From contig CAZWPQ010000005.1 in NCBI GenBank assembly GCA_964636085.1, forward strand, positions 1 through 28,218: a DNA stretch of 28,218 nucleotides, read 5' to 3'. A program made the position numbers and the translations under genes. Shown piece after piece: positions 14,269 through 24,997 of this stretch. The notes under the pieces are model-generated. The model saw only the letters and a program-made list of their open reading frames with translations. It ran no database searches and had not been told where the DNA came from. The stretch's first letter is position 1; the number at the start of each line of letters is the position of its first letter. The stretch comes from an uncultured Nitrososphaerota archaeon (GTDB lineage: Archaea; Asgardarchaeota; Njordarchaeia; Njordarchaeales; Panguiarchaeaceae).

Positions 14269-14556
14269 TTTTATCTCCGAGCGACCAAAAGTTTTATTAA
14301 AAAAAGGTTTAAATTATCGCGATAAATACACTAGTTGGGTGTATTATCTCTCTGTAGCGTTCCCTTATTTATCAATTTGTACATTGATGAATGCATATAA
14401 CTTTTTTGTGCAGAAAATAGAAAGATATTTTGCCATTTCACAAATTATCCTGTTTTATCCAGTTTTATTTATATATGATGTGTGTTTTATTTTTAAGAAT
14501 CAAAAAAATATTTATATATACGTAAGGCTTGGTGGTAAACGTTGGGCGGGGTATTT
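14269..14556. promoter_or_regulatory. Divergent promoter region nuoM / 7TM gene with several dyads
   Basis: BRE/TATA CAAAAAAATATTTATATATA at 14501-14520 (+). TTTAAA at about 14308-14313 (-). Palindromes at 14314-14325, 14325-14345 and 14371-14388. Tandem TTATCCWGTT at 14445-14468. Confidence 0.55.
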
Positions 14557-15312: not shown

Positions 15313-16368
15313 ATGAGTACTAAAAAGCAAGAGATTCCAAATATAATTTTTTTGGTGCTTCATGAAAGCGGTATAATAGTTTATTCTTATCCTAACCTAG
15401 GAAAGGAGCAGTATTTACTTTCGTCGTTAATCAGCGCCACCATGGCGATTGGTGAGCAAATATCCAACAGGGAGGGAGAGATTGCAAGTGTTACAATTGG
15501 TGATAGAACAGTACTAGCTATTAGAGAGAATGATATCATATATGCCCTCATAACTACTAAGCACTATGCACAAATGAATAAACTTCTATTTTTGATGATT
15601 GAGGAGACAAAAAAGAATTTTCCAGCCAAAATCGTAGATGGGATAGTCAGATCAAAGGCCGACACCACCTTGTTAGATACACGCATAGAATCCCTCATAA
15701 CCATGCATTCAAAAGTGCTTGAACTGGAGAAAAGGAAACCAATTGAAACAGCAGAGATCCCATTAACTGATGTCCACAGGATTCTCGGTGAATATAAATT
15801 CGCAAAAATACTGCGTGGCCTCATCGCAGATAAAAACATAATTATCATGGGTTATGACCCTATAAGCATCGCCAAGATCATACACACAATTATTGGTTTA
15901 TTTCCCCGCCCAATTAGCTTCCTTACAATAGAGGAGACCGAACTAAATCGGCTTAACCAAGTCCACCCTCCCGCCGTAATCATCTGTAGGCGTGGGTTAG
16001 AAAAGAAAATAGTGGAAAAAATCGGAGATACTATTATACTAGATTTCGATAAGCCCATCAAGAAACTGAAGGGAGACAAACTATGCGATGTTTTAACACA
16101 GGCACTTAGACTGGAAAGGGAAGAGAGTAAAGTACTAATGGTAAAGAATGAACTCATGTCACTTATATCCATCGTAGATGACCTAAGGAGAATACTGAAA
16201 TCGGCGGGAAAGGAAGAAATCACAATTGATCAACTAAAGACGGAATTATACAAAAAGCACCCAGGCGAAAAAGTTGATTATATACTTAGGGTTCTACAGG
16301 AGGAAAAAAGCCATTTAATAGACTCGGTAAAGACCCCCGAGAAGGTATTGGATGAGATATTTTTCTAG
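15313..16368 (+). CDS. Longin (uDENN) + cDENN-like + helical dDENN-like protein
   Basis: Residues ~10-130 show the longin beta-beta-alpha-beta-beta-beta-alpha-alpha pattern (FLVLHESGIIVYSY, LLSSLISA, IASVTIG, VLAIRE, IYALIT). Residues ~149-247 follow the cDENN pattern (HRILG..FAKILRGLIADKNIIIMG..IHTIIGLFP, PPAVIIC, IILDFD). The C-terminus is helical. Confidence 0.78.
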   Translation: MSTKKQEIPNIIFLVLHESGIIVYSYPNLGKEQYLLSSLISATMAIGEQISNREGEIASVTIGDRTVLAIRENDIIYALITTKHYAQMNKLLFLMIEETKKNFPAKIVDGIVRSKADTTLLDTRIESLITMHSKVLELEKRKPIETAEIPLTDVHRILGEYKFAKILRGLIADKNIIIMGYDPISIAKIIHTIIGLFPRPISFLTIEETELNRLNQVHPPAVIICRRGLEKKIVEKIGDTIILDFDKPIKKLKGDKLCDVLTQALRLEREESKVLMVKNELMSLISIVDDLRRILKSAGKEEITIDQLKTELYKKHPGEKVDYILRVLQEEKSHLIDSVKTPEKVLDEIFF

Positions 16369-16447: not shown

Positions 16448-16822
16448 ATGGGCGAAAAAAATTTTGTCAAGATCGCCAGACTCAAACCCGCCAGACGAGG
16501 ACTCAATATAAGAGCCCTCGTTCTCGAAAAAGGAGACACAGTCCAAGGAGTCTCTAGAAAGACAGGCACCCAGTATAGATTAGCTGAGATTGTCATCGGC
16601 GATGACACAGGAATAGTCAAGGCAACACTTTGGGGCGACACAATAGAGTTGGTTAGTGCTAACAAAACATACGAGTTTTACAATGTCGATACAACACTCT
16701 TTAGGAATACTTTAAGGGTTAACATTAGTAATAAATCCAAGATCGTTGAGGCGACGGAGCCTATTAATAGGGATCATATAAATATATCTAATGACATGTC
16801 CAGACCTAGAAAAAGAAAATGA
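16448..16822 (+). CDS. Single OB-fold ssDNA-binding protein (crenarchaeal SSB/RPA-like)
   Basis: KIARLKP, LNIRALVLEKG, IVIGDDTGIVKATLWGD, FRNTLRVNI; TATA TTTATAAA near 16387. Confidence 0.9.
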   Translation: MGEKNFVKIARLKPARRGLNIRALVLEKGDTVQGVSRKTGTQYRLAEIVIGDDTGIVKATLWGDTIELVSANKTYEFYNVDTTLFRNTLRVNISNKSKIVEATEPINRDHINISNDMSRPRKRK

Positions 16823-18970: not shown

Positions 18971-21900
18971 CTATTTAGATAGAGACCCAGAATGTTCTCC
19001 CTCTCGAGTTTTTACCCGCTTGAATAGCCCAGATATTTTCTCTTTTATATGGACTCTTTTAAGGGGAGTATACTTATATGCTAGATAAATAATCGTCGCC
19101 GCCGTGGCGATCATCAGACCTATAGTTATTGGGCCAATAATATAAATTGTTGTCTTAGTCGTTTTCCACAAATATACCTCCTTGGAGGCACCAAACATCC
19201 CTACTTTGACCCTAACTTTGTATTTCCCTAAATCTATCCTCTCGTATGATCTAACAATACCCTGATAGAGTAGGGTTCTATAGTAGCCATCTTTGACTGT
19301 AGATTTGATTATTAATTCCTTACCCTCTATTGTTAGGTCTGCTGTTTTCGGCGTTCTGAAGTCATATCTTATATTTACTTCGAGTGTAAAGAGTACATGG
19401 ATTTCACCAAGGTCATACGCATCTAATGGATACTCAATGCTCGTATCTATTAGCCACAACTTTGCTTTGCCATCACTATACCCCGTAAATATTGTGGAAT
19501 TTATAACCGTGACATTAGCTATGAATCCGGCATATATGGTCCAGTCGTACACTTCCGAGTCTTTTATGATATATTCAGCAAATAACTGATCGTTGAATAT
19601 CCTAGTTGTACTTTCAGTATTGATTTTGGGAAAAACATTCCCATAGATATATCCCATAACCACACCAATTGTAGAATTCGAGGAATACAGCTTCGAACCA
19701 GTGCTCAATGATGCTAATCTCATCCAGCTCGAGTTCAGCACTATATCTACTGCGGCTATTGATAAGAATTGAATTACATCCGACTCTCTAGCGTATATCT
19801 CGGAACTATCCGCTATCATTATATCGCTGGAACAATTCTGGAACTGAACTACGGAGCCGCTAACAGTGATGTTTATGTTGGTAATATTTGTTTCACGTAG
19901 AATCAGATCCCAATAAACATTATTACTGGTGATCATATCTGAATCTAAATACTCGTAGTATCCCTCCCTCAGATCGAAAACTTTTATCATCACATTACTA
20001 ATGTTTACATTTAGACCCACAGTTGCATCCTCCAGTATTATCGTCCCCTTCCCTATATCTATGGATGAAACATTTACATTATCAGCCTGTACATGTGTGT
20101 TAAATCCAATAACACTTACGCTACCTATGCTTGAATTTGATATCGAGACAGTTGCGAATTCAGAAACTGTGAGATACCACGCCTTAATATCAACATCATT
20201 GAAGGTTCCATTAGCCATTATCGGTATTTCATCTGGAGATGCCGCTGAATCAACATGCATTGGTGATAATGAAGATATTGACATTCTTGTGAATGCAACA
20301 TATACGTTTACTCCTATGGCTGAATCCTCAACAGTAAATTCTGAAGCATATAGTAACATGTTTCCTATCTCAGATTTCTGCACTTTCACGCTACAACCAT
20401 ATGCAGATAGACCAGTTGAATTAGAGTTCTCTATCTCCACGGTTGAATCAATAGCTTGGATATTGTCGAGCGACGAATTATAGATCGTTATATTTGACGC
20501 CCTTACAAACATTGTTCCTATTTTGGAGCCATAAATCTTTATGACCGATCCATAAGCATCGATGTCCAGGCCCATAATGGTTACATTATGCAGATACACG
20601 TTTGGTATTATATATCCCGTAAAGTTCCATTCTATGCTATCGATCCCATCCAACTCTAAATTATCTATATTCATCACATAAACATACAGCATTGTTATCG
20701 AATCAAATATATTCACACTGGTCACGGAGCCCGAATCCATGTATACCAAAGTGTAGCCATATATGTATGTACGCCTCATAGTAAGAGAGGCATTGTAGGC
20801 TATTCCTATTGATAGCAATGCCGAATTCTCCACGCATATGTCAACATCGCCGTTGATTCCCACACCCATTATTGACCATGCATATAAAGAGGAATTAGTC
20901 GCATTTATCCTCGTATTTATATCACCCATAACATAGTCATCTAGACTGAAAGAATCGTAGTGTCCTGGCAACAGCTCCCGCACATATAGGGACCCAGACA
21001 TTATATAGAGCACTGGGCCTAGGAGAGAGCCTGTAGCGTCTATCTTTGAGTCATATATGTATAGGATAGGTAGTGTGGAGCTATCCACAGATACATTAGA
21101 TTTCCACACAAAACTGATTCCATACATATCGGAGTCCTTAATGGTTACATTTGATCCAAAAGCTACGAAGAATGATGATGTCTTTATACCATTTATTATA
21201 GCTTTAGAGTTTGAAACGTAGAGATCGACAAGCATAGAATCTTCCAATACTACGTCACACATATCAAAGTCAAATGCCCAAGATACCCAGGAATCATCAA
21301 TTCGTACCGACCAATCCAACGAAACACCTAGCGTATCTTGGGATTCCCATGATTCTATATAGTTTGGCCTATAGTTCTTTAGATGGATGTTCTTTCCCAC
21401 AAAAGCCATATATATTGTAGCTACGGATTCCCTAACGCTTATAGATACATTCTGTATAGCTGCGATGTATCCACCATAGGAATTGTTAATTGATATATGA
21501 GCATCAGTACCCATTCCTGCTAGGAATGCAAAACTGGATTTGGAGACAAAAGCCCTTGCGTAGCCCAATACGTACAGGGAATCGAGTAGAGAATCATGGA
21601 TATCCAAGATTGCTCTTCCCGACATGTATATTGAAGATATCAGTGAGCCATTAATCTCTACTGTTGAATTGTGAGTTGCCCTTAGAAGCATTACTGATGC
21701 TTCATTAATATCTATTGTGCTATTATAGTATGAGAATATCCAACCCAGCTCACAATCATGTATTCGCAGTTTCGAATTAAACAAAATTATATCCCATCCC
21801 ACCACAATTACATCATTAATGACAAGCCTCCAACCGTTTGTATTATTGATGGTTAAAACATCTATAGAACCAGGGTATATTCCCGATATATTCGCCTCGG

Positions 21901-24900
21901 TGTTATTATAGGTCAAACCAAACCATACCTCGCCCCCCTTAACTATGACTTCGACATGATCGTATATCCTTAACCAATAAATTACATCCGTATTATACAG
22001 CTCTGCATAGCATTCTTGTTTGCAGTCTAGTAATACCATACGAGAATCATTTATTTTGACCGAGGAGCGATCTCTCACAACAAATTCTACTACTTCACTT
22101 GCACAGATATCGGCCTGCGATCCCTCTTCTAGATATATCTGATATATGTATGACTCATTTACAACTATATCAACATTGACTCCATGGACTACAAATACCC
22201 GTGATTTGTTTATTTTAATTTCGCAATCAGCTATTCGGGCTAGGGTTATGTTGGATTCATCCATCGCCAAGTCTATGGCTCCATATATCATGGTGCTTGT
22301 GGATGAATTCATGTAGAGCTCTGTATTGCTCCCTTCGACCCTAACTATTGACGTGTTTACAGCTTGGATATTCGAGGAGTATGTCTCTATATTTGCAATC
22401 TTACTGGCTACTATTCTAATCTCGGCGCTACGTATATGTAGACTCCAATATATTACTTCTGTATTTACTAGGTCGATCGTGGAGTTAGATATAATCAATA
22501 AATATGATGTATAGTTTGATGGTTCGAGTTCGATATTCTCTGAAGAGTCCATAACGTACATCATTATTCCCATAGTTGAGTCTATAGATTCTATAGTTGA
22601 GTTATATATCGTGAGACTAGCGACTTTTGATGATACAATATATATCTCTGTCTTGTTTGCAACTACAATATCTATTGAGGAATTCGTTATGTTTAGTGCC
22701 GCACCCACGCACATAATTGAGAGCCCAGCATAACTGGTGTTTATTTCTCCTAGGATGCCCATTGTTGACAAGTTGTAATAGTCGATAAAACCACTATGCC
22801 AGTTATTTACTTCCTCTGTTATATTTATAAGCATAAGTTGAAGTGTTGAGTTATAGGCATTTATGTCTGAAGAGTTATCGTATACCATCACATTGTTGAT
22901 AATGCCGTCAGTTATGTTTAGCGTGGAATTTATTAGATCAACGATAATGGCTACCGATGAATTCCTTATATCCACCCTAGAATTATTTGTACACATACAG
23001 ATACCTATAACAATGCTGTTTTCAATGGTTATGTTGGAGGCCCATGCTGTTATATTATTCACCAATACTATGGAGTTCTTTACGAGTAAGGAACCATTAT
23101 TCATATATATATTCCCCCCGAAAACAATGGTCTTATTCTCGATCAAATATGTCTCGTTTTCTATGTTTAGGCTATCATAAAATTCGGCCCGTATTGGTTT
23201 TCGGGTGAATAGTGTGGGGTCTCCAAGCAAGTTGTATTCCGCCACAGTTTTCCAATCCAGATAATATCCAGCCAATGTATTCCTTATGCCATGCTTCGTG
23301 ATATACTCAGATATTGCCCTCGCCCATATAGCACCTAGGGTGGTATTGATTTTACTTGTGTGGTCAAAGTATGCCCTTATTGTTCTCCAGACCATCTCCC
23401 CCATTAGGCCACTTGTTACTAGTTCTCCTATATATCCCCAAGCAAGTCTTGATGATCCTAGGAAAGCTATTGCTCCGCCATTTGGATTCAATATTAGCGC
23501 TTCTCCTATTCCATCCACCTCTGCAAATCTACCTGCATCACACGACAATGCTACGAAAATTGGATAGATCTTATTTCTCTGGGATAATGCATCTCCTATG
23601 GAATATGTTTCTGAGAATGTAACCACGAGACTATCATGCGTGCCGTGACCGGTAAATGCGACTAATGAATACCCCTCATCCATCTCCTGTATGAACGTGG
23701 TTCTGGTAAGGTTGCCGAAGGTCTCATATATCCTTGTTATTGTAGCATTCCTAACAAATTTGCTGGAGTACTCTAATAGATATTCGCCTTCTGGATATCC
23801 TACCATAAATGTATCAGTGCCGACGAACAGTACTCTAGATTGTAATGAGTCTATCGGTCTATATCTGCTTATTTTATCTATATACATCATTGCCTCTGTA
23901 AGATTACTCACACTTATCCTACCCACCAATACGTCTGGCCATCCATCAACATTATCGTGCTCTAGGTCTCCCCAGTGTCCATCATTGTTGTCATCCCAAG
24001 TATTGTCTAGGTCGGCATAGTATAAATCTGTTTCAACGATATCACCGTCTATGTTCGGATTATTATCAAATGCACCATCAGGGATATATGCATACCTTAC
24101 TGGAACAACATCTGTGTCTCCTAGGATTATCACAAATTTTATTCCGAAATTCCTCCATGCATATTTTATATATTTTCTAATGCTCTCTTGTCTATCCCTC
24201 CCCTCGAATGCTATATTGTCGTATATATCCTCCACATACATGATCTTTATGCGAAATCCCTCTCTCTCCTTGATCCCCTGAAGCCTCTCTGCAGCTTGCT
24301 GTAATTTCTTTGAGGTTATTATGAGTACATCATATGTTACTTCCTTAATACCTAACTTAGGTGATCTTAAATATGTTACTTTTATTCTCATAGACACAAT
24401 ACGTTTTGCAACATTATCGTTTAGAGCTACATATGTCTGGGTCCTCATGATTAGAAATTTGTGTGGCTTCAATGTTAATGGATCTATGCCAGAACGGATA
24501 TCATATCTTATGTAGCCCAACAAATCCCTATCATGTACATCGATTATACCCCCCTGCTCCGCTGAAAGGTCAAGATTTTTGAACCGCATTGGCAAATTTA
24601 TGAGACGCGTCTCTATATCTAGAACACTAACATTTATTACCCATGAGTCATATGGTAGCTTTATAAGAGTTATATTCATCGGAGGCGGCGCCCTGCATCT
24701 TATTGGAGCTAAATTCCCACTAGGGACATCTATACCGACATAACATGGGGTGTCTGGATACATCAATGATCCGCCAAATCTTAGATCCACAATGAGCTCT
24801 TTTACTCCTGCACTGATCATTGGTTTCAAAAATTCTTTGTCTAGAAACCATCTAGTTGGAAGTCTTGGCAACGCTTTTGATGATTGATCACTATAAGTAT

Positions 24901-24997
24901 GGATAGGCCCTCTATTGTTGGAAATAACATAGTTTATTTGGCTTGGCCAAGTCGATAATATTATCACGAGTACTACCGCGATTGAACCCTTCCTCAA
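18971..24997 (-). CDS. Giant membrane-anchored gingipain-family (peptidase C25) protease with long beta-helical repeat region
   Basis: Signal peptide, then a prodomain-sized region. C25 domain at about 23216-24334 (YDVLIIT, VIILGD, TDLYYADLD, VGRI, FTGHG catalytic His, LSCDAG catalytic Cys, GGAIAFLGSSR, YNLLGDP). About 1250 aa of I-x-N/D-S-x-I repeats follow, then a C-terminal TM and basic tail. TTG start behind a GAGGGTGA SD. Confidence 0.93.
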   Translation of the reverse strand: MRKGSIAVVLVIILSTWPSQINYVISNNRGPIHTYSDQSSKALPRLPTRWFLDKEFLKPMISAGVKELIVDLRFGGSLMYPDTPCYVGIDVPSGNLAPIRCRAPPPMNITLIKLPYDSWVINVSVLDIETRLINLPMRFKNLDLSAEQGGIIDVHDRDLLGYIRYDIRSGIDPLTLKPHKFLIMRTQTYVALNDNVAKRIVSMRIKVTYLRSPKLGIKEVTYDVLIITSKKLQQAAERLQGIKEREGFRIKIMYVEDIYDNIAFEGRDRQESIRKYIKYAWRNFGIKFVIILGDTDVVPVRYAYIPDGAFDNNPNIDGDIVETDLYYADLDNTWDDNNDGHWGDLEHDNVDGWPDVLVGRISVSNLTEAMMYIDKISRYRPIDSLQSRVLFVGTDTFMVGYPEGEYLLEYSSKFVRNATITRIYETFGNLTRTTFIQEMDEGYSLVAFTGHGTHDSLVVTFSETYSIGDALSQRNKIYPIFVALSCDAGRFAEVDGIGEALILNPNGGAIAFLGSSRLAWGYIGELVTSGLMGEMVWRTIRAYFDHTSKINTTLGAIWARAISEYITKHGIRNTLAGYYLDWKTVAEYNLLGDPTLFTRKPIRAEFYDSLNIENETYLIENKTIVFGGNIYMNNGSLLVKNSIVLVNNITAWASNITIENSIVIGICMCTNNSRVDIRNSSVAIIVDLINSTLNITDGIINNVMVYDNSSDINAYNSTLQLMLINITEEVNNWHSGFIDYYNLSTMGILGEINTSYAGLSIMCVGAALNITNSSIDIVVANKTEIYIVSSKVASLTIYNSTIESIDSTMGIMMYVMDSSENIELEPSNYTSYLLIISNSTIDLVNTEVIYWSLHIRSAEIRIVASKIANIETYSSNIQAVNTSIVRVEGSNTELYMNSSTSTMIYGAIDLAMDESNITLARIADCEIKINKSRVFVVHGVNVDIVVNESYIYQIYLEEGSQADICASEVVEFVVRDRSSVKINDSRMVLLDCKQECYAELYNTDVIYWLRIYDHVEVIVKGGEVWFGLTYNNTEANISGIYPGSIDVLTINNTNGWRLVINDVIVVGWDIILFNSKLRIHDCELGWIFSYYNSTIDINEASVMLLRATHNSTVEINGSLISSIYMSGRAILDIHDSLLDSLYVLGYARAFVSKSSFAFLAGMGTDAHISINNSYGGYIAAIQNVSISVRESVATIYMAFVGKNIHLKNYRPNYIESWESQDTLGVSLDWSVRIDDSWVSWAFDFDMCDVVLEDSMLVDLYVSNSKAIINGIKTSSFFVAFGSNVTIKDSDMYGISFVWKSNVSVDSSTLPILYIYDSKIDATGSLLGPVLYIMSGSLYVRELLPGHYDSFSLDDYVMGDINTRINATNSSLYAWSIMGVGINGDVDICVENSALLSIGIAYNASLTMRRTYIYGYTLVYMDSGSVTSVNIFDSITMLYVYVMNIDNLELDGIDSIEWNFTGYIIPNVYLHNVTIMGLDIDAYGSVIKIYGSKIGTMFVRASNITIYNSSLDNIQAIDSTVEIENSNSTGLSAYGCSVKVQKSEIGNMLLYASEFTVEDSAIGVNVYVAFTRMSISSLSPMHVDSAASPDEIPIMANGTFNDVDIKAWYLTVSEFATVSISNSSIGSVSVIGFNTHVQADNVNVSSIDIGKGTIILEDATVGLNVNISNVMIKVFDLREGYYEYLDSDMITSNNVYWDLILRETNITNINITVSGSVVQFQNCSSDIMIADSSEIYARESDVIQFLSIAAVDIVLNSSWMRLASLSTGSKLYSSNSTIGVVMGYIYGNVFPKINTESTTRIFNDQLFAEYIIKDSEVYDWTIYAGFIANVTVINSTIFTGYSDGKAKLWLIDTSIEYPLDAYDLGEIHVLFTLEVNIRYDFRTPKTADLTIEGKELIIKSTVKDGYYRTLLYQGIVRSYERIDLGKYKVRVKVGMFGASKEVYLWKTTKTTIYIIGPITIGLMIATAATIIYLAYKYTPLKRVHIKEKISGLFKRVKTREGEHSGSLSK

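Follow-up and report, generated by a model that had tools for sequence, protein, structure and literature searches.

The locus

The window analysed here is a stretch of 28,218 nt from contig CAZWPQ010000005.1 of an uncultured archaeon. It contains an intact open reading frame (ORF), running from ATG to TAG, for a protein of 351 amino acids, here called P0001, which is predicted to combine an N-terminal longin domain with a C-terminal DENN half. The gene is preceded on the same strand by one for a polytopic membrane protein with about seven transmembrane segments (the 7TM protein), and the two genes form a conserved pair in most related loci. An earlier reading of the DNA, made from the sequence alone, had delimited the P0001 gene exactly and had interpreted its product as a tripartite DENN-like module; apart from the attributes “minimal” and “ancestral-like”, that interpretation is supported by the structural analysis described below.

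Predicted fold and domain layout

An AlphaFold2 model of P0001 was built on an alignment of 20 family sequences. It has a mean predicted local distance difference test (pLDDT) score of 82.6 and consists of a longin domain (residues 7-140) followed by a DENN core with a helical tail (residues 148-340). In the longin domain, strands are predicted at residues 11-17, 22-26, 57-62, 65-72 and 75-82 and helices at 32-49, 89-101 and 119-140, with an additional hairpin at 105-114. The order of elements in residues 11-140 (beta-beta-alpha-beta-beta-beta-alpha-alpha) is the canonical one for a longin domain, apart from one additional hairpin. Structural comparison by VIA matched this domain to sedlin, Trs23 of TRAPP, synbindin, VAMP7 and Sec22b with Z scores of 10-11.4 and a root mean square deviation (rmsd) of 2.6-4.4 over 114-123 residues. 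The N-terminal longin fold expected of a DENN-superfamily protein is thus seen both in the predicted secondary structure and in the VIA comparison.

The sequence-only reading had likened one segment of the protein to the cDENN consensus and had placed a longin domain directly in front of it. The segment is present as described, starting with IPLTD at residue 149 and including PPAVIIC (219-225) and IILDFD (241-246), and the longin domain precedes it in the model. The core to which it belongs is predicted to contain four parallel strands (175-179, 202-206, 221-225 and 240-244) alternating with helices, and in structure searches it aligns to FLCN residues 343-551, DENND10 residues 148-357, and DENND1A. 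The C-terminal lobe begins with a long helix (270-298), followed by helices at 305-313, 318-330 and 342-350. Alignments with DENND10, reaching its residue 357, and with DENND1A/B, reaching residues 360-367, span model residues 270-340, indicating that an equivalent of the dDENN lobe is present, with the caveat that the last three helices are winged-helix-like (cullin WHB domains match with Z 6.4-6.6). Sub-threshold AAA_assoc_C matches also fall in this lobe in 8 of the 20 family members. The most conserved surface is formed by the longin beta1-beta2 hairpin (LHESG...Y.YP) together with core residues K174, Y181 and P198; these three residues, as well as H17, G20 and P27 of the hairpin, are invariant in the 9 full-length members.

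Table 1. Positions in the window of the gene pair, its candidate promoter and the predicted domains of P0001
Feature	Position (nt)	Strand	Basis
Candidate archaeal promoter (putative), A-run plus TTTATATATA	14502..14520	+	Sequence read
Upstream partner, polytopic (~7 transmembrane segments) membrane protein, ~250 aa	14542..15300	+	ORF, hydropathy, homologues
Longin-DENN protein gene P0001, 351 aa	15313..16368	+	ORF, AlphaFold2 model, Foldseek, VIA
Longin (uDENN-equivalent) domain, residues 7-140	15331..15732	+	AlphaFold2 model, VIA
cDENN-like alpha/beta core, residues 148-268	15754..16116	+	AlphaFold2 model, structure alignments
Helical C-terminal lobe (dDENN-equivalent, winged-helix-like end), residues 270-351	16120..16365	+	AlphaFold2 model

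Relationship to the DENN superfamily

When the whole chain was compared with the Protein Data Bank (PDB) by Foldseek, DENND1B (3tw8) ranked first (E 1.1e-8), followed by DENND1A, FLCN, C9orf72, DENND10, FNIP2 and SMCR8, all with alignments of nearly full length. The TM-scores of these whole-chain alignments are low (~0.33, with rmsd above 15 A) because the angle between the lobes differs. By VIA-align the best whole-chain match was FLCN (Z 12.3, 293 residues aligned), and residues 148-340 matched DENND10 (Z 11.1), the FLCN C-terminal domain and DENND1A/B with Z scores of 10-11.1.

Residues 141-351 were also modelled separately (pLDDT 88.9, predicted TM-score 0.85) and searched against 48,161 representative PDB chains with no Foldseek pre-filter. 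DENN-family proteins occupied ranks 1-6, with Z 8.8-10.3 over 170-192 residues: the FLCN C-terminal domain (Z 10.3, 170 residues), DENND10 (10.3, 182), FLCN (10.0), DENND1A (9.9, 177), SMCR8 (9.1) and C9orf72 (8.8, 192). STAND and AAA+ P-loop domains formed a second tier with Z of at most 8.2 over about 100 residues. In the Foldseek search with the same model DENND1B was again found (E 2.9e-5, TM-score 0.52), and the first chain from outside the DENN family followed at E 1.9e-3. In both searches, then, the central core was nearest to cDENN rather than to other Rossmann-like folds, and a better Rossmann-like match for residues 149-250, which would have spoken against the sequence-only reading, did not appear. 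Three different structure searches thus place the DENN family on top, whether the query is the whole chain or just the C-terminal half. A shape search of the ESM Atlas returned clusters of eukaryotic DENND11 and DENND2D as well as unnamed Asgard clusters.

Sequence comparison gave no significant match of this kind. P0001 had no match to the Pfam families DENN, uDENN, dDENN, Avl9 or Folliculin_C at E values up to 10; against Pfam as a whole nothing exceeded threshold (best Longin, E 0.023, then Fuz_longin_1, E 0.097), and a scan of NCBIfam gave zero matches. The Pfam DENN profile (PF02141) found nothing in the genome from which the window comes, P0001 alone found nothing among PDB chain sequences, and the profile of the 20 family sequences found no DENN protein there, matches being at chance level. 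At E <=0.001, PF02141 was silent in 121 genomes of the phylum, but the controls were silent too, so that this is no evidence of absence; the same holds for a profilin search, which was likewise silent everywhere.

Below the curated cut-offs, sequence matches among the 20 members do point in the same direction (DENN in three, best E 0.0013; Avl9 in two; Folliculin_C in one). In P0012, residues 76-144 match positions 63-130 of the DENN profile (E 0.014) and residues 100-147 match positions 6-53 of Folliculin_C (E 0.0046), and in P0008 residues 163-220 match Avl9 (E 0.013). All three of these sub-threshold matches lie within the segment that had been likened to the cDENN consensus, and the likeness is therefore taken to exceed chance. 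By hhalign, the same segment aligned over 65 columns (E 1.7e-5, probability 79%) with a family of 294-amino-acid DENN-only proteins from other Asgard genomes. Since no sequence match is significant, membership of P0001 in the DENN superfamily depends on fold and architecture, and the predicted structures support its assignment as a DENN-superfamily protein of longin-DENN architecture.

The 294-amino-acid proteins lack a longin domain and were found in three genomes that belong to a different genus of the phylum (L029:291-1175, L031:1513-2397 and L032:1516-2397). Their first 70 residues align with the start of cDENN in the P0001 family, and two of the three, when scanned, gave sub-threshold Folliculin_C matches. 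They probably represent one of the broader DENN families of Asgard archaea.

The P0001 family

The family is small. A collection of 5.8 billion proteins contained three matching proteins including P0001, and when 1.84 billion cluster representatives were scanned exhaustively with HMMER, 20 representatives matched, about 9 of them full-length with 30-58% identity. A word-seeded profile search added only two short and weak matches. P0001 is the sole full-length member in its own genome. The family is narrow and fast-evolving, occurring in a single genus and in a few relatives from metagenomes, and for this reason the label “ancestral-like” is not favoured for its architecture. The term “minimal” was likewise an overstatement: at 351 amino acids P0001 is about as long as eukaryotic DENN modules (357 residues in the DENND10 chain, 343-381 in DENND1A/B constructs).

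Three members, P0015, P0018 and P0019, share with P0001 only residues ~121-351 and have a different N-terminus, which places a domain boundary near residues 120-145. These proteins of 307-403 amino acids, from metagenomes and from metagenome-assembled genomes in NCBI, keep the last longin helix and the DENN half; the rest of the longin domain is replaced by an unrelated N-terminal region of about 170 amino acids that has no Pfam match. Domain shuffling has occurred inside the family.

A conserved gene pair

The stop codon of the 7TM gene lies 12 nt before the ATG of P0001. A start at TTG 14542 is assumed for it; an alternative is GTG 14557, where the Atlas record begins. The protein belongs to no Pfam family, and its hydropathy profile shows about seven hydrophobic segments with basic loops at residues 32-50, 107-112 and 171-201. 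Its homologues are 43-69% identical and share the motif FQLxEAGG (alignment A5). In 8 of the 10 loci that could be read, the DENN-like gene has the gene of a 7TM family member as its immediate upstream neighbour. These are the window, G002 and G003, together with the loci of P0002, P0003, P0004, P0007 and P0009 from metagenomes (the paired homologue loci being L002, L012, L019, L021, L022, G003 and L009). The two genes overlap by 4-8 nt or are separated by 8-12 nt in these eight loci, and the DENN proteins are ~32-58% identical (G003, 45% over the N-terminal half held by the contig). The other neighbours vary from locus to locus and include genes for a CLC channel, SSB-like, PaREP1, Macro/POR, fumarase and AFOR proteins. 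A ninth contig, that of P0008, has a 258-amino-acid gene at the 7TM position, and is outside the eight counted.

Among 151 sampled genomes of the phylum, the 7TM family was found only in G000, G002 and G003, and the same three carry a full-length member of the DENN family. They are three of the five genomes of the genus; the two that have neither gene are 78-81% complete.

A TATA-like box, TTTATATATA, lies at 14511-14520, ~25-30 nt before the TTG codon of the 7TM gene. No such box is found in the 12-nt gap before 15313, and the next gene downstream, at 16448, is preceded by a separate one, TTTATAAATAAAA. Because a candidate promoter is present before the 7TM gene, none before the DENN gene, and the following gene has its own TATA-like box, the arrangement of these sequence elements fits a two-gene transcript. 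The pairing is the new point of this analysis, the protein fold being of a kind already known. The sequence-only reading, whose DENN assignment stood, had not linked the gene to this upstream partner, which is its most conserved neighbour.

Some of the related loci depart from this arrangement. In the lineage of P0002 the 7TM gene (L009:670-1439; also L010 and L011) is in two frames, corresponding to profile positions 2-95 and 89-247; what lies behind this is a genuine frameshift or pseudogene, or else a site of recoding. At L035:3439-5065 a longin-only protein of 138 amino acids is encoded directly upstream of P0031, a full-length member of 354 amino acids, and is 53% identical to its N-terminus. 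Genes for ThiS-like and JAB proteins follow, and a 7TM gene is absent; a membrane protein adjoins the family member here, but is unrelated to the 7TM partner. L035 may represent a longin-longin heterodimer arrangement.

The host genome

The genome that contains the window comprises 2.41 Mb and is 83% complete. Asgard archaea are marked by actin together with an expanded set of Ras-superfamily GTPases, and both occur in this genome: a eukaryote-type actin (PF00022, 363 bits, full model, positions 3-407), eight full-length Ras-family (Rab/Ras-like) GTPases (E 1e-31 to 1e-42) and five Gtr1/RagA-like (Rag-like) GTPase matches. The earlier suggestion that the host is an Asgard archaeon is thereby borne out. 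Two homologues of P0001 are labelled “Candidatus Korarchaeota archaeon” in NCBI; false attraction of Njordarchaeales to Korarchaeota is a known effect (PMC10307638).

Further longin-like proteins are encoded in the genome. One of 227 amino acids ends in an AsnC/TrmB-type winged helix-turn-helix (C6:86193-86876, + strand), and another of 304 amino acids has an uncharacterised C-terminal half (C7:30659-31573, - strand). A third, of 367 amino acids (C1:112410-113513, - strand; L016:911-2014), consists of a polytopic membrane region and a C-terminal longin-like domain, and its residues 267-359 match the P0001-family profile (E 1.2e-5). A Rosetta-stone link between the membrane part of this fusion and the 7TM protein was considered and rejected, as comparisons by BLAST and hhalign were negative (hhalign probability 0.3%). 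Finally, a run of genes on one strand (C8:48420-53626, - strand; L015) encodes a 248-amino-acid protein, split GT4 glycosyltransferase ORFs, a Ras-like GTPase (108 bits) and a V4R-domain protein. The 248-amino-acid protein, a candidate for a second DENN-like protein, has no Pfam match and resembles the DENN C-terminal half weakly (hmmsearch E 0.03, hhalign probability 6.5%).

Possible function of the gene pair

In eukaryotes the longin-DENN fold is found in DENND1-type guanine nucleotide exchange factors (GEFs) for Rab proteins, in Avl9-type GTPase-activating proteins (GAPs) and in the GAP complexes of folliculin, C9orf72-SMCR8 and GATOR1. Asgard DENN proteins have been proposed to be GTPase regulators (bioRxiv 10.1101/2020.10.19.343400). 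On balance we think it probable, with moderate confidence, that P0001 is a membrane-coupled regulator of small GTPases, or a platform for them, which is docked by the co-transcribed 7TM protein in a Njordarchaeales-like Asgard archaeon. Under this proposal a cytoplasmic longin-DENN protein would be made together with a seven-helix membrane protein that docks or controls it at the cell membrane. The docked protein would bind one of the ~13 Rab-like and Rag-like GTPases of the genome, and the bound GTPase would change its nucleotide state or its location through the DENN protein. The analysis shows the fold, the Asgard host, the conserved gene pair and the lack of known GAP motifs; that P0001 touches the 7TM protein, that its client is a GTPase and which way it would regulate that GTPase are the parts of this scheme that we infer.

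A number of observations weigh against it. The helix count of the 7TM protein comes from a crude hydropathy scan. Two family loci, L014 and L035, have no 7TM neighbour, and for the P0002 lineage three independent assemblies (ENA, JGI and Logan) show a frameshifted 7TM gene, so that the pairing is not obligatory. A Pfam scan of all window ORFs of at least 100 amino acids (28 kb) found no Ras, Arf, Gtr1 or Robl_LC7 domain, nor are GTPase or Roadblock genes among the neighbours in related loci. A known catalytic signature was not found in the P0001 family either. Longin-type GAPs such as FLCN, SMCR8 and NPRL2 are defined by a GP motif, with which the beta1-beta2 loop ends, and by a longin arginine finger (PMC12290439). 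In the nine full-length members G20 is invariant, but the next residue is I, V, N, T or D and never Pro, and no Arg is invariant; position 65 is Arg in 7 of 12 distinct aligned members and Lys in two more. The monomeric DENN GAPs Avl9, DENND6A and DENND11 carry an arginine finger in the longin beta4-beta5 loop (bioRxiv 10.64898/2026.01.05.697756). In P0001 this loop is N73-D74, between beta4 (65-72) and beta5 (75-82), and offers no Arg; the nearest basic residue is at position 70, which is K or R in 11 of 12 aligned members, mostly Lys and Arg in three of the 12.

For DENND1-type Rab GEFs, which exchange the nucleotide of a Rab by means of the cDENN lobe, we know of no defining sequence motif. 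With the arginine-finger and GP motifs missing, GEF, GAP and scaffold activity may all be regarded as candidates for P0001, and a GEF activity like that of the DENND1 type is suggested by similarity of the predicted fold only. We slightly favour a GEF-like or scaffold function over a GAP.

The strongest competing explanation is that P0001 is a non-catalytic adaptor, a regulatory or structural subunit of a 7TM transporter, channel or sensor, acting without any small GTPase. DENND10, a non-GEF component of the Commander complex, provides a model for this, and ties as the best match for the C-terminal half (Z 10.3 in the search of representative chains, Z 11.1 in VIA). The missing GAP motifs and the lack of a GTPase gene nearby speak for an adaptor, as does the better conservation of the 7TM protein compared with the DENN protein (43-69% versus ~32-58% identity). 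On the other hand, to our knowledge almost every longin-DENN protein characterised so far makes contact with small GTPases, and the genome is rich in the latter. Moreover, the most conserved surface of P0001 is the beta1-beta2 hairpin, where longin-type GAPs have their catalytic pocket (PMC12290439). We regard an adaptor as rather unlikely.

That P0001 is a longin-type or Avl9-type GAP which turns off a Rag-like or Arf/Rab-like GTPase, in the form of a homodimer or together with a different longin protein of the genome, appears improbable. FLCN has the highest whole-chain Z score, a basic residue at position 70 is nearly constant, and further longin proteins exist in the genome as potential partners. 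The FLCN loop sequence, to which we liken H17 and G20, is presumably H-G-P. These two invariant residues of the beta1-beta2 loop do recall the FLCN loop, but the following Pro, an invariant Arg and an Arg in the beta4-beta5 loop are all missing (PMC12290439; bioRxiv 10.64898/2026.01.05.697756). Furthermore, because the genome holds a single full-length family member, no partner like FNIP or NPRL3 is evident.

That P0001 is no DENN homologue, its C-terminal half being instead a degenerate NTPase core of the P-loop/AAA+ or STAND-like type with lid and winged helix, convergent in shape with DENN, and the protein possibly serving as a ligand sensor or DNA-binding regulator, is very improbable and was rejected: the second-tier matches to NB-ARC and AAA+ proteins (Dark, Z 8.2; Apaf-1, Z 7.6; MCM7, E 1.9e-3), the sub-threshold AAA_assoc_C and winged-helix matches in the last 80 residues and the paralogue-like longin and winged-helix protein on C6 are outweighed by the shorter extent and lower scores of those matches (~100 residues versus 170-192 for DENN), by the longin-then-DENN order, which is a DENN signature, by the weak sequence matches, which are to DENN, Avl9 and Folliculin_C rather than to NTPases, and by the lack of Walker motifs, there being no Walker B and, in place of the Walker A sequence GxxxxGK[ST] after the first core strand, the turn GYDPISIAK (180-188; GYDxxLIxK in the family).

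Comparison with known systems

P0001 shares the order of an N-terminal longin domain and a C-terminal DENN domain with folliculin (FLCN; PDB 6nzd_H, 8dhb_J and 3v42_B), SMCR8, C9orf72 and FNIP2. FLCN is its best match for the whole chain and the best, or tied for best, for the C-terminal half. However, identity to this group is just 9-14%, neither a GP motif nor an arginine finger is present, the P0001 genome encodes no second longin-DENN subunit with which a heterodimer could be formed, and no Rag or Roadblock genes adjoin P0001. The Rab35 GEF modules of DENND1A and DENND1B (6ekk, 3tw8) and DENND10 (8p0v_M) have a similar size (343-381 versus 351 residues) and the same order of three lobes, and DENND1A/B are the best Foldseek matches of P0001, with the whole chain as well as with the C-terminal half as query. 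P0001 differs from them in scoring below the Pfam thresholds for DENN, uDENN and dDENN and in the orientation of its lobes (rmsd >15 A).

In archaea, Liu et al. described DENN-domain proteins from most Asgard lineages (bioRxiv 10.1101/2020.10.19.343400; Nature 2021), an Asgard operon of genes for a LAMTOR1-like (Roadblock) protein, a Rab-like GTPase and a DENN protein, and Heimdall proteins with the exact longin-DENN layout of FLCN (bioRxiv 10.1101/2020.10.19.343400). Folliculin/SMCR8-type longins with both GP motif and arginine finger have been reported from Heimdallarchaeia (PMC12290439). P0001 resembles the proteins of Liu et al. in its Asgard host, DENN fold and longin-DENN organisation, and is thus a divergent, lineage-restricted member of an already published kind. 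Unlike those proteins, its family is restricted to a single genus and a few relatives from metagenomes, and in contrast to the operon, a 7TM gene stands in place of the adjacent Roadblock and GTPase genes. A search for papers that bring together Asgard, DENN and 7TM found none that describes this pairing.

At the lysosome, a cationic amino-acid transporter recruits the C9orf72-SMCR8-WDR41 complex (PMC12290439). The gene pair described here resembles this system by analogy only, as both combine a multi-pass membrane protein with a longin-DENN regulator; the pairing of P0001 is known from gene order alone. The membrane-coupled regulator proposed above might be one half of a receptor-regulator pair, in which the 7TM protein senses a ligand or substrate and recruits or switches a DENN-fold GTPase regulator, as a prokaryotic counterpart of the recruitment of folliculin/C9orf72-type complexes by lysosomal transporters. 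This more specific version is tentative, and we would sooner expect it to fail than to hold.

Other genes of the window

Two further proteins of the window are mentioned for completeness. A protein of 2008 amino acids (18971-24997, - strand) has a gingipain-type Peptidase_C25 domain (205 bits), a long repeat region and a C-terminal anchor, and a clostripain-family (C11) protein (2-1885, - strand) continues past the window end.

Biological implications

DENN and folliculin-type proteins set the place and time of small-GTPase action on eukaryotic membranes, and Asgard DENN proteins are part of the case that the machinery of GTPase regulation is older than the eukaryotic cell. Finding the fold by itself in an Asgard lineage is unsurprising. 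The zero matches to PF02141 in the 121 genomes of the phylum illustrate that DENN-fold proteins are overlooked by standard Pfam annotation. We know of no archaeal DENN protein with a known partner or activity. As a compact, well-modelled and co-expressible two-gene unit, P0001 and its 7TM partner are a reasonable experimental target, with which the tethering of an archaeal DENN protein to a membrane protein, and its choice among the ~13 GTPases, could be tested. If the two proteins do act as receptor and regulator, the wiring of membrane signals to GTPases via DENN proteins would be older than eukaryotes.

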